Sequence record: PP925836.1
Strand: one strand, 5' to 3'
From: Escherichia phage MagusPhagus
DNA: 54,396 nt
Below the pieces are notes generated by a model, which saw nothing but the letters and a program-made list of their open reading frames with translations, did no database searches and had not been told where the DNA came from. Made by a program: the position numbers and the translations under genes. This document shows positions 24,360-24,516 of this stretch, one piece after another (positions within the stretch are counted from its first letter, which is position 1; every line of letters begins with the position of its first letter).

Positions 24360-24516
24360 GATTTAACCTCATACAAAATGTGATCTATGCCTCTATTTTA
24401 TACAAAATGGCTTTACTGTAACGACTCCATTTTGTATAAAGAGGCTAAAGGAAAGGGATAGAGCAAAGGGATTTAAAAGGCCGGATTAACCGGGGGAAGC
24501 GAAGGAGGATAAGAAA

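Follow-up and report, generated by a model that had tools for sequence, protein, structure and literature searches.

Dispersed copies of a 15-bp motif in an mEp021-like coliphage are probably operators of its lambda-CI-type repressor

We examined a short motif, CCATTTTGTA, that recurs at some 25 places in the genome of a temperate coliphage, and we conclude that it is probably the operator of the phage's own lambda-CI-type repressor, Rep (Rep021 family). The motif is enriched, lies at regulatory positions, is conserved among relatives and co-occurs with this repressor family. We read it as the Rep operator because the PL and PR regions share the word, because copies overlap promoters and the start of rep, because the loci of homologous repressors have the same repeats, because a matrix made from those foreign sites picks out the motif, and because the motif is kept when the Cro protein changes. 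From these sequence patterns we infer that Rep binds the sites and from there represses, activates or roadblocks transcription. The original prediction had been a dispersed site for a phage or host regulator; the phage regulator stands, with the CI-like repressor as its best candidate, while the other proteins then named (the winged-helix protein, Q and CRP) are disfavoured.

The DNA analysed, called the window below, is 54,396 nucleotides long and is the circularly permuted genome of an mEp021-like ("mEpimmI") temperate coliphage. Phages of this group are reported to be as common as lambdoid phages among human faecal isolates (PMC11893012). The same paper names the mEpimmI repressor, gives no operators, promoters or cargo-gene control, and mentions no repeats of the motif's kind; a full-text literature search with the motif sequence returned nothing relevant.

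Results

The motif is strongly enriched and mostly intergenic

Exact matches to CATTTTGTA and its reverse complement number 15 in the window, against 1.08 ± 0.98 in dinucleotide shuffles (none of 100 shuffles reaches 15) and 0.77 under a third-order Markov model. The 8-mer CATTTTGT has 23 copies over the whole window where 3.2 are expected, and at every k from 8 to 12 no word is more over-represented than the motif. The enrichment first claimed, at least 17 copies with fewer than one expected, thus held in a background-corrected scan with shuffled controls, although the count of 17 had mixed exact and variant copies. The positions given for them were essentially right: exact copies lie at 722, 3769, 7730, 12782, 21106/21175, 24370/24399/24427, 40297, 46567, 46634, 53596 and 54275. 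Four of the listed copies are variants (12751, CCATTTTGTGAT; 19546, GATTTTGTGATC; 28076, CCATTTTGTTTA, in a start-codon context; 46548, GCATTTTGTTTG), and sites at 634, 2629, 39206 and 50190 were absent from the list. The common 16-mer ATTTTGTGATCTGCGT and the CRP-like palindrome are both present as described.

Written in full, the motif reads (W)(W)T(C/A)C-ATTTT-GTAWA, a weak dyad of 15 bp, of which the window has 17 strong and about nine weaker sites. Its left arm is mostly TCC in the window where symmetry with the right arm would need TAC, so the dyad is weak; the consensus of the repressor family, TATAC-N5-GTATA, is a clear dyad, and the window has this symmetry only in part. The weak left arm counts against the Rep-operator reading, as does the strand of the strong sites, 12 of 17 being on the plus strand. 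An arms-only pattern is too loose to define sites by itself (203 matches genome-wide), and an exact 15-mer scan of viral contigs gave mostly chance matches in AT-rich contigs, with several copies per contig in relatives only.

Most copies are intergenic, as had been claimed: under the PGAP and mEp021 annotation 12 of the 17 strong sites lie between genes and two more overlap a gene end or start. With a greedy ORF set (88% coding) the number is 8 of 17, which only 5 of 20,000 random placements reach. The greedy set contained spurious ORFs (685-852, 19615-20031, 46462-46599 and 54115-54315), so we take this test only as a conservative bound. At most sites the motif columns are 95-99% identical among relatives, against 81-93% for the flanks. 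The copies had also been described as often in divergent pairs; a back-to-back pair occurs in one region (24399/24427), and in three regions the pairs are instead face to face (12748/12782, 19541/19635 and 21103/21175).

Sites at rep, PR and along the PR operon

The features of this region are as follows.

1-648, minus strand: rep, 215 aa, HTH_3 and Peptidase_S24 domains; lambda-CI-type repressor and proposed binder of the motif
631-645, plus strand: OR-a, ATACC-ATTTT-GTTTT; overlaps rep codons 1-5
684-698, minus strand: OR-b, TACAC-GTTTT-GTGAC; weak in the window; overlaps a CRP-like site at 674-689
708-735, plus strand: PR-like promoter candidate read from the sequence, TTGATC-16-TAAACT, 8/12
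719-733, plus strand: OR-c, ATTCC-ATTTT-GTAAA; covers the spacer and -10 of the PR-like promoter
2629-2643, plus strand: PR-operon gap site, TATAC-ATTCT-GTAAA; intergenic, directly 5' of the RBS of the gene at 2661; found with the foreign-site matrix
3766-3780, plus strand: helicase-gene site, ATTCC-ATTTT-GTAAA; in the gap from the 372-aa gene to the helicase gene, whose RBS it directly precedes
7727-7741, plus strand: PR-operon end site, ATTTC-ATTTT-GTAAA; overlaps the int gene

Three sites (631-645, 684-698 and 719-733) fall between the divergent rep and first lytic genes, the last of them over the lytic promoter, which is the arrangement of operators for a repressor of this type. OR-a is 99% conserved, a value inseparable from coding constraint, and the phage L301 (see below) has a site at the same position. 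OR-b reads ATAC-ATTTT-GTGAC in several relatives. The PR-like promoter was not called by our promoter scan, its 8/12 match being below the scan threshold; its -35 and -10 are conserved in relatives while the spacer flank is variable, and a nut site lies downstream at ~812-830. One spacer position of the PR site is changed from T to C or from T to A in many relatives, which counts against the Rep-operator reading. The helicase-gene site is 99.4% conserved in 30 distinct relatives against 88-92% for its flanks, and L301 has an equivalent. CTTGC..GCAAG palindromes 3' of PR and similar PR and PL +1 regions were considered as alternative Rep operators; they are not common to the other regions or to the repressor homologues, and may be RNA features.

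Sites at PL, nutR2 and elsewhere

On the PL side and in the remaining early region we find:

54272-54286, plus strand: PL-upstream site, AATCC-ATTTT-GTATA; 1 nt 5' of the PL -35, centred near -41
54245-54273, minus strand: PL-like promoter, TTGACT-17-TATATT, 10/12; upstream of a nutR1-type site and the N-like gene
54247-54261, unstranded: PL-core candidate site (arms-only, speculative), TTTAC-GGGGC-GTATA; occupies spacer and -10; the strong site is 25 bp away
53593-53607, plus strand: N-like gp17 gap site, TTTAC-ATTTT-GTATT; in the gap that separates gp17 (N-like) from the next gene; equivalent in L301
50190-50204, unstranded: PL-operon gap site, TATAC-ATTAT-GTATT; near-palindromic, in a short gap; best foreign-matrix match, 20.8 bits
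46567-46581, minus strand: nutR2-promoter site, TATCC-ATTTT-GTATA; covers the spacer and -10 of TTGTTA-16-TATACT (46592..46565)
46631-46645, plus strand: methyltransferase-end site, ACGCC-ATTTT-GTAAA; at the 3' end of the methyltransferase gene, 64 bp from 46567
40294-40308, plus strand: intragenic strong site, ATGCC-ATTTT-GTATA; in the 5' end of a small minus-strand gene
39203-39217: weaker intragenic copy

As had been claimed, the copy at 54275 adjoins the -35 of the PL-like promoter (54273..54245), whose hexamers are invariant and whose spacer is variable in 16 distinct sequences. Apart from the motif, the nut site is the only 14-mer (up to 2 mismatches) that the PL and PR regions have in common; together with the N-like gene (gp17), the nut sites give the window an antitermination context. 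The promoter at 46592..46565 and its site lie directly upstream of a nutR2-type boxA/boxB (nutR2 of mEpimmI phages: PMC11893012), and the neighbouring site at 46631-46645 adjoins a perfect CRP-like site at 46610-46625. Equivalents of the PL-operon gap site are present in mEp021 and L301.

Two details here count against the Rep-operator reading. Sites 40294 and 39203 are inside coding sequence and have no obvious role. The PL core is without a strong site, the strong copy at 54272-86 being outside it, which leaves the silencing of PL without an account; a site near -41 would by geometry alone predict activation. The arms-only candidate in the core has a G/C spacer and a poor matrix score; its arms are kept or improved in relatives, and it has the same register as the core operator at the PL of a homologous repressor locus (L306).

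Sites at the junctions of tail genes and cargo cassettes

Sites occur in each of the four divergent regions (R1-R4) that separate tail genes from opposite-strand cassettes.

12748-12762, plus strand: R1 site, CTACC-ATTTT-GTGAT; in the divergent region between tail fibre and lipoprotein cassette; right arm overlaps a CRP-like site at 12757-12772
12719-12733 (plus strand) and 12813-12827 (minus strand): weaker flanking copies in R1
12782-12796, minus strand: R1 site facing 12748, AATAC-ATTTT-GTATG; 19.9 bits with the foreign matrix
19541-19555, plus strand: variant site, G for C in the window and TCATTTTGTGATC in relatives; fused to a CRP-like site at 19550-19565
19573-19587, minus strand: AATCC-ATTTT-GGTAT; adjoins the -35 of the plus-strand cassette promoter TTGATC-17-TATATT (19586-19614)
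19598-19612, unstranded: palindromic site, TATAC-ATATT-GTATA; same cassette promoter, within spacer and -10
19635-19649, minus strand: GCGCC-ATTTT-GTTAA; in the gap that separates the tail L gene from the first cassette gene
21103-21117, plus strand: GTTAC-ATTTT-GTATA; in the 5' leader of a minus-strand tail gene; degenerate in many relatives
21175-21189, minus strand: AAGCC-ATTTT-GTAAA; lies within the 17-nt spacer of GTGAAG-17-TATAAT (21192..21164), a minus-strand promoter
24370-24384, minus strand: motif-like copy over the tape-measure RBS; 88% identical against 91-92% for its flanks
24399-24413, minus strand: AAGCC-ATTTT-GTATA; upstream of the tape-measure gene; overlaps GTTACA-16-TAAAAT (24422..24395)
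24424-24438, plus strand: ACTCC-ATTTT-GTATA; spans spacer and -10 in TTTACT-17-TATAAA (24412-24440), a plus-strand cassette promoter

The cassettes carry a ParE-like toxin module and a KilAC/Ant-domain protein (Pfam), with an exclusion lipoprotein at R1. In R1 (12711-12889) no promoters could be assigned. Site 19635-19649 holds the TTGTTA of a promoter-like match (19641..19612) and is 99.6% conserved against 85% for its flanks. Site 21175-21189 also adjoins the -35 of the plus-strand cassette promoter TTCACA-17-TATACA (21188-21216), and in this region TATAAT and CTTCAC are invariant in 28 distinct sequences. The interval singled out originally, 24370-24440, divides: the motifs at 24399 and 24427 are invariant in 29 distinct sequences from relatives, with variable flanks and a variable 16-bp spacer between them, whereas the copy at 24370 is unconserved and hence probably not functional.

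The cargo of relatives differs from 10-25 nt past the motif at 24427 and past ~12825, a divergence that a conserved promoter/operator module placed before variable cargo would give. Among 33 tail loci of the group, which were not chosen by the motif, 31 have 2-6 copies per 20 kb (the others being a short locus with one copy and a locus with none), and 49 more distant lambda-like tail loci of enterobacterial phages contain no copies.

The motif follows the repressor and not the Cro-position protein

The closest solved structure to Rep is lambda CI (3bdn, E=1e-19). In other phages the motif goes with the recognition helix of the repressor. In a related phage (L301-L303), Rep is 55% identical overall with an identical HTH (MGITKGGLSHWLNGRREPN), and the same CCATTTTGTATA sites occur beside the PL -35 and dispersed in intergenic gaps (in L301 at 5255, 6707, 11279 and 16048). 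Two L301 copies in a gap beside an ANT-domain gene are also present in L302, which is without that gene. Prophages whose Rep homologues are 38-51% identical have similar recognition helices and carry three sites between cro and rep and two to four downstream of rep. These have the form TATAC-RTTTT-GTAT and are spaced 24-45 bp, where OR and OL are expected; there are 18 matches against 2.2 expected (0 of 2000 shuffles), 12-fold denser than in the rest of the loci. In L306 the top repeated 8-mer is TTTTGTAT, with four copies. Only OR and OL carry sites in a Citrobacter prophage whose repressor is homologous.

A matrix from these foreign sites alone ranks the window's motif copies as its best matches, above all shuffles, and gives 0.317 matches/kb in the group's tail loci against 0.010/kb in distant tails; the foreign sites had been picked by a loose motif-derived pattern, shuffle-controlled, so that the matrix is not fully independent. 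The spacer is oriented oppositely with respect to transcription in the window and L301 at equivalent sites, a pattern that suits a dimer bound to a dyad better than a directional element.

Could another phage protein bind the sites instead, either the winged-helix (HTH_36) product of the first PR gene or some conserved early protein? The winged-helix protein has a DNA-binding fold (Pfam), and Cro-like proteins normally share operators with the repressor. The phages that bear the motif also share many further genes, uncharacterised early genes among them, which counts against assigning the motif to Rep. Rep is at least 91% identical in all complete IMG/VR contigs of the group, so a covariation test with heteroimmune relatives had no contrast. 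A scan of genome contigs with Rep as query gave no match. Against another protein, however, Rep is 96% identical to Rep021 of mEp021 and the winged-helix protein in the Cro position only 38%, with the motif the same in both phages; in L301-L303 a Cro of another family (HTH_3) replaces it and the motif is kept; and the same word stands at the OR and OL of prophages (among them the Citrobacter, Enterobacter and metagenomic loci) that have nothing but the repressor homologue in common with this phage. We therefore regard a different phage protein as an unlikely binder.

Promoter elements, host factors and recombination

The motif might alternatively be a sigma-70 core promoter element (a -10 of TAWACT or TATAAA plus a conserved upstream stretch), repeated wherever a cassette or tail gene restarts transcription and needing no binding protein. 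Its 3' half is a plausible -10, 16-17 nt from a TTG-type -35, in four cases (the PR-like promoter, 46592..46565, 24412-24440 and 24422..24395), and the tail-region copies point to the downstream gene. Across copies, however, there is no information at the -35 distance, and the register is not fixed to -35 and start: we find at least three, with the motif in the spacer only (21175), upstream of the -35 (54272 and 19573) or as the -35 itself (19635). The invariant CCATTTTG is no sigma-70 recognition element, its G being at -13 and not -14; copies at 2629, 3766, 40294, 46631 and 53593 lack a usable -35, are antisense, or both; the cassette promoter at 21188-21216 needs no CCATTT part; and the homologous repressor loci have the word as triplets at OR and OL. 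We give this explanation little credence. A single promoter type for all copies had been dropped on finding no common -35 signal 16-18 nt upstream of them. To our knowledge the motif also fits no sigma-32, sigma-54, sigma-S, sigma-28 or extended -10 consensus.

The CRP-like palindrome is real, conserved and distinct from the motif, and it overlaps some operator copies at their right arm. TGTGA-N6-TCACA occurs 6 times in the window against 1.33 expected, in five of the motif's regulatory regions, and three of these sites overlap the GTGA right arm of a copy (684, 12748 and 19541). This enrichment and co-location are what would speak for the motif being a host-factor site (CRP, another E. coli regulator or a nucleoid protein) reused by the phage. 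Yet most copies have a GTAWA right arm and no CRP half-site, only the GTGA-armed variants overlapping the dyad; the 49 related tail loci of enterobacterial phages lack the motif; and it tracks one repressor family across hosts. A host factor is thus very unlikely, and we know of no consensus among those of IHF, Fis, LexA, DnaA, OmpR and TyrR that the motif matches.

That the motif is a recombination boundary or linker for exchanging cargo cassettes between phages, as had been suggested, is highly improbable: unrelated cargo does begin within 10-25 nt of it (24427; past ~12825) and two L301 copies adjoin the ANT-domain gene, but it sits only at the promoter-proximal cassette end, the distal ends having bidirectional terminators, PR, PL, the nutR2 promoter and conserved early-operon gaps, where gene content is constant and cargo does not vary, account for many copies, no recombinase with such a target is evident, and short conserved regulatory modules are expected break points of homologous exchange anyway.

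Discussion

If the motif is the Rep operator, the unit would be about 15 bp, with short arms T(C/A)C and GTA(W) around the A/T spacer ATTTT, read by a repressor dimer, and its copies would have multiplied in this phage lineage. In the lysogen, Rep would silence both the PR-like and the nutR2 promoter, because the site covers spacer and -10 in both; from the site over the start of rep it would keep its own synthesis in check. PL would be controlled from the strong site near -41, perhaps aided by the weak arms-only core site. Repressor sitting in the short early-operon gaps could stop polymerase from reading through. At the tail/cassette junctions a site occupies the core of the tail-ward promoter, which predicts repression; at three of the four (R2-R4) it is at the same time 1 nt upstream of the cassette promoter -35, a geometry equal to that of CI at OR2 relative to PRM, which predicts that the cassette promoter is either not hindered or activated.

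Taken together, these steps would make Rep a genome-wide regulator acting from about 25 operators: holding PR, PL and the nutR2 promoter, blocking early read-through, and throwing a two-way switch at R2-R4 (tail-ward transcription repressed, cargo activated as at OR2/PRM), with the CRP overlap adding a nutritional input and lysogenic-conversion genes wired to the immunity repressor. As a whole this scheme is tentative and, in our judgement, rather doubtful in all its parts at once.

Were the sites Rep operators, the immunity specificity of the mEpimmI group would be given, and its being a single immunity group explained, the HTH being identical even in a 55%-identical Rep. A lambda-CI-type repressor would then be working in the dispersed manner known until now from unrelated repressors (P1 C1, L5 gp71), and a direct link would be suggested from a prophage repressor to the exclusion, toxin and antirepressor cassettes among the tail genes.

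The proposed system is most like the CI-type repressors of lambda, 434 and P22 (c2): an HTH and S24-peptidase protein, sites between the divergent rep and first PR genes and at PL, neighbouring sites 23-33 bp apart, an N-like/nut context, and one site ~40-44 bp upstream of the start of an adjacent promoter, as OR2 is for PRM. It differs in that lambda has six operators in two clusters, whereas here about 20 further sites extend over the early operons and the tail/cargo junctions; in that the OR sites of the window are 37-50 bp apart and not 23-24; and in its weak dyad with a conserved A-tract spacer and a PL core without a strong site.

Cluster A mycobacteriophages (L5 gp71, Bxb1, TipsytheTRex) have dozens of immunity-repressor sites genome-wide, many in operon gaps, in addition to the one at the early promoter (PMC9283540, PMC6550527). 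The sites at 2629, 3766, 50190 and 53593 resemble these stoperators in their placement in short intergenic operon gaps. The stoperator repressor, however, acts as a monomer whose two DNA-binding domains read an asymmetric 13-bp site, and it lacks an S24 domain, whereas Rep is HTH_3 plus Peptidase_S24; stoperators follow the direction of transcription, whereas the motif runs with transcription in the PR operon and against it in the PL operon, and is reversed in L301; and many motif sites overlap promoters instead of lying between genes.

In P1, a single repressor, C1, serves many separate operons through more than 15 scattered promoter-overlapping operators, which is the likeness to the present case; C1 is an unrelated protein with a 17-bp asymmetric consensus, and P1 is a plasmid prophage without a CI/N/Q-type circuit. 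The phiC31 repressor binds conserved inverted repeats (CIRs) in many intergenic regions before early genes, and so provides another dyad-type repressor site that recurs between genes, in a different repressor family and host; we know of no CIRs at tail-gene/cargo junctions. For regulatory regions set in late genes the parallel is the immI region of P22 (mnt-arc-ant), a secondary regulatory region with overlapping divergent promoters among late structural genes, and one cassette here encodes a KilAC/Ant-domain protein; immI has its own repressors, Mnt and Arc, and their operators, whereas the sites proposed here would be copies of the primary immunity operator.

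Phage group and genome map

At the DNA level the window is 83-89% identical to the mEp021 group ("mEpimmI") of Nus-dependent, non-lambdoid temperate coliphages, and it matches the prophage of E. coli 09-00049 at 95-99.9%. It reads as a prophage map, circularly permuted:

1-648, minus: rep, CI-like repressor
955-7759, plus: early operon (winged-helix protein, replication genes, helicase, NinB)
7717-8964: int
minus strand: tail, head, lysis, Q, nin and recombination genes, up to the N-like gp17 gene
53606-53896: N-like gp17 gene
12889-13137, plus: exclusion lipoprotein cassette (PMC11893012), interrupting the tail genes
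19661-20437, plus: cassette within tail genes; KilAC/Ant-domain fragment of 82 aa at 20189-20437
21257-21978, plus: cassette within tail genes; ParE-like toxin of 84 aa preceded by a 51-aa ORF (21257-21684), probably a toxin-antitoxin pair
about 24518-25082, plus: cassette within tail genes

The window is not identical to the 09-00049 prophage (NZ_CP015228.1): the two diverge over a block at about 38.4-40.1 kb, the J-like tail gene shows a 108-nt difference, and there is extra sequence of about 450 nt. In the window, int is joined to the tail fibre at about 9.06-9.08 kb, which resembles an excised circular genome.

A dispersed motif specific to the phage group

The over-representation noticed in the original prediction is confirmed: CATTTTGTA or its complement occurs 15 times in the window against 1.08 expected, and its word family ranks first among over-represented k-mers at k = 8-12. 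In a matrix scan of the window 17 sites exceed the shuffled-sequence level (12 of them on one strand), and the total is about 25. Around the core word first reported, the information-bearing positions run from 4 nt upstream to 5 nt downstream, and none lie at the -35 hexamer distance from the copies. Despite its asymmetric look, the motif reads as a weak dyad: in the family consensus, a 5-nt A/T spacer separates the arms T(A/C)C and GTA. Such a form suits a CI-type dimer, and the spacer orientation, which in the window and in a related mEp-like locus (L301) is independent of transcription direction, also fits a weak dyad. When the ORF set is read with the annotations, most copies are intergenic or at gene ends, with 40294 and 39203 inside genes.

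Enrichment is confined to the phage group. Among 33 group tail loci retrieved via a tail protein, 31 hold 2-6 copies per 20 kb (the exceptions being one short locus with 1 copy and one with 0), as against 0 copies in 49 loci with a more distant tail protein (64-68% identical). The interval singled out in the original prediction held up in part: copies 24399 and 24427 are invariant across 29 distinct sequences, with the 16 bp separating them variable, whereas the third copy, 24370, is not conserved.

Several genes, e.g. at 28076-28087 and 48338-48349, start with GAGGTAAACAAAATGG (ribosome-binding site, spacer, ATG), whose complement resembles the motif (CCATTTTGTTTAC) and thereby inflates loose counts; such copies are probably translation-start contexts, not operators. 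Other over-represented words are AGGTGTATTT (5 copies, 0.15 expected) and ATAAGAGGT (6 copies, 0.24 expected). Separately, within 13.9 kb of a 42-kb viral contig of 45% GC without BLAST similarity to the window (L016, IMGVR_UViG_3300021963_000246), CATTTTGTA occurs 3 times; the contig could be another phage using the same operator family.

Placement relative to promoters

Only the motif and the nut sites supply 14-mers common to the PL and PR regions (<=2 mismatches). Copies stand in several registers:

708-735: PR-like promoter TTGATC-16-TAAACT, site over spacer and -10
46592..46565: promoter TTGTTA-16-TATACT, site over spacer and -10, directly upstream of the nut site called nutR2 in the literature (PMC11893012)
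54273..54245: PL, TTGACT-17-TATATT (10 of 12), site 1 nt upstream of -35 in opposite orientation
19586: cassette promoter TTGATC-17-TATATT, TACAAAATGG 1 nt before -35
21188: cassette promoter TTCACA-17-TATACA, TACAAAATGG 1 nt before -35
24412: cassette promoter TTTACT-17-TATAAA, TACAAAATGG 1 nt before -35
19641..19612: tail-facing promoter-like element TTGTTA-18-TAAAAT
21192..21164: tail-facing promoter-like element GTGAAG-17-TATAAT
24422..24395: tail-facing promoter-like element GTTACA-16-TAAAAT

The PL layout (TACAAAATGG, one nucleotide, -35 hexamer) is thus repeated at three cassette promoters, and at all three the same or a neighbouring copy lies within the core of the element facing the tail genes. 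At the fourth junction between tail genes and a cassette (12711-12889) promoters could not be assigned. Copies 2629, 3766, 50190 and 53593 occupy short early-operon gaps without usable promoter context, two of them directly preceding a ribosome-binding site. Because the motif takes several promoter registers as well as non-promoter positions, we read it as a candidate protein-binding site rather than a promoter element.

The original prediction had also offered a recombination boundary tied to cargo. The data do not support this: within a cassette the motif is found at the promoter end alone, and stretches of constant gene content have it just as much. Relatives carry different cargo after the same promoter/operator module, and each cassette ends distally in a bidirectional terminator-like G+C-rich hairpin with T runs on both strands (13143-13163, 20514-20532, 21984-22006, 25090-25106), several sharing the stem AACCCCG...CGGGGTT.

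Nut-like and CRP-like elements

Three nut-like elements (boxA-like GCTCTTTAA/GCACTTTAA, then an A-rich hairpin), at 812-830 (+), 46524-46545 (-) and 54186-54205 (-), match nutL, nutR2 and nutR1 of PMC11893012. A promoter-like element that carries or abuts an operator copy stands a short way upstream of every one, an arrangement that implies a third early promoter before the nin/Q region. The first transcribed bases after the -10 are similar at the PR-like promoter (733-772 +, ACTTGCAGACAAGGTAAGG) and PL (54225-54246 -, ATTGCGAGTCAAAGGAAGG), and two small palindromes after PR, CTTGCAGACAAG and CTTGCAAAGACGCAAG, are conserved in relatives; these features may represent RNA hairpins or else another class of operator.

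CRP-like TGTGA-N6-TCACA sites (<=1 mismatch) number six in the window against 1.33 expected: 674-689, 12757-12772, 19550-19565, 21145-21160, 46610-46625 and 3174-3189. Five lie within the same regulatory regions as operator copies, and relatives keep the half-sites of 19550 and 46610 unchanged but vary in the N6. In three cases the site overlaps an operator copy's GTGA right arm, an overlap suggestive of competition or of joint regulation by cAMP-CRP.

The CI-like repressor as the candidate regulator

The idea of a dispersed binding site for a phage regulator is supported, and can be sharpened to the window's CI-like repressor, Rep, as the putative ligand. Rep has HTH_3 and Peptidase_S24 domains, with lambda CI as its closest solved structure. 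Compared with mEp021, the window's Rep is 96% identical but its Cro-position winged-helix protein only 38%; at orthologous positions the two phages have the same motif copies. An intermediate Rep homologue from a protein search (P0008; 55% identical overall, helix-turn-helix stretch identical) belongs to a mEp-like phage with a Cro of a different family, and this phage has the same CCATTTTGTATA sites beside the -35 of its own PL, across the rep start and in numerous gaps between genes.

The mEp021 record gives Rep as 198 aa, from a start equivalent to M18. Since the HTH_3 match starts at residue 10 and MKTKWYDLAK is conserved in homologues, the 215-aa form is more likely, and with its start operator copy 631-645 overlaps codons 1-5.

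Rep homologues with 38-51% identity come from metagenomic contigs and from Citrobacter and Enterobacter prophages that are unrelated in other respects. Their loci hold three TATAC-RTTTT-GTAT copies in the cro-rep interval plus two to four more downstream of rep, spaced 24-45 bp; in one, the most repeated 8-mer is TTTTGTAT. These foreign sites give 18 matches against 2.2 expected (0 of 2000 shuffles reach 18), 12-fold denser than elsewhere in the same loci. A matrix built solely from the foreign sites returns the motif copies as its top-ranked matches in the window, adds two sites there (2629 and 50190), and gives 0.317 hits per kb in group tail loci vs 0.010 in distant ones. Within 20 kb, a Citrobacter prophage has matrix sites only at OR and OL, whereas L301 has about eleven dispersed ones and the window about 25; dispersal therefore belongs to the window's phage lineage, not to the repressor family.

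Proposed regulation

We infer a Rep-based mechanism of motif action. In the lysogen, Rep would occlude the PR-like and nutR2 promoters, autoregulate at the rep start and bind beside PL, where, speculatively, the PL core may have a weak arms-only site (54247-61), which is 25 bp away from the strong one and could be filled cooperatively as in lambda. Operon-gap sites could serve as roadblocks. Three of the four tail/cassette junctions would each have one dimer that occupies the tail-ward promoter core and, at the same time, a position about -40 to -44 relative to the cassette promoter. In lambda, CI at OR2 activates PRM, and the geometry predicted from sequence at these junctions is the same; cassettes would thus be kept on or stimulated and tail-ward starts off.

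Comparison with known systems

In P1, C1 operators are scattered, and the window sites are in part like them. They also partly resemble cluster A mycobacteriophage stoperators (PMC9283540, PMC6550527). The window sites belong to neither family, since both differ from them in the type of repressor, in the symmetry of the site and in the rule for orientation. The published mEpimmI description names the repressor and nut sites, not the operators (PMC11893012). Two features, the weak dyad and a PL core with an arms-only candidate (54247-61), decide neither for nor against the CI-type operator class; for these predicted sites, their position and their joint occurrence with the repressor support it.
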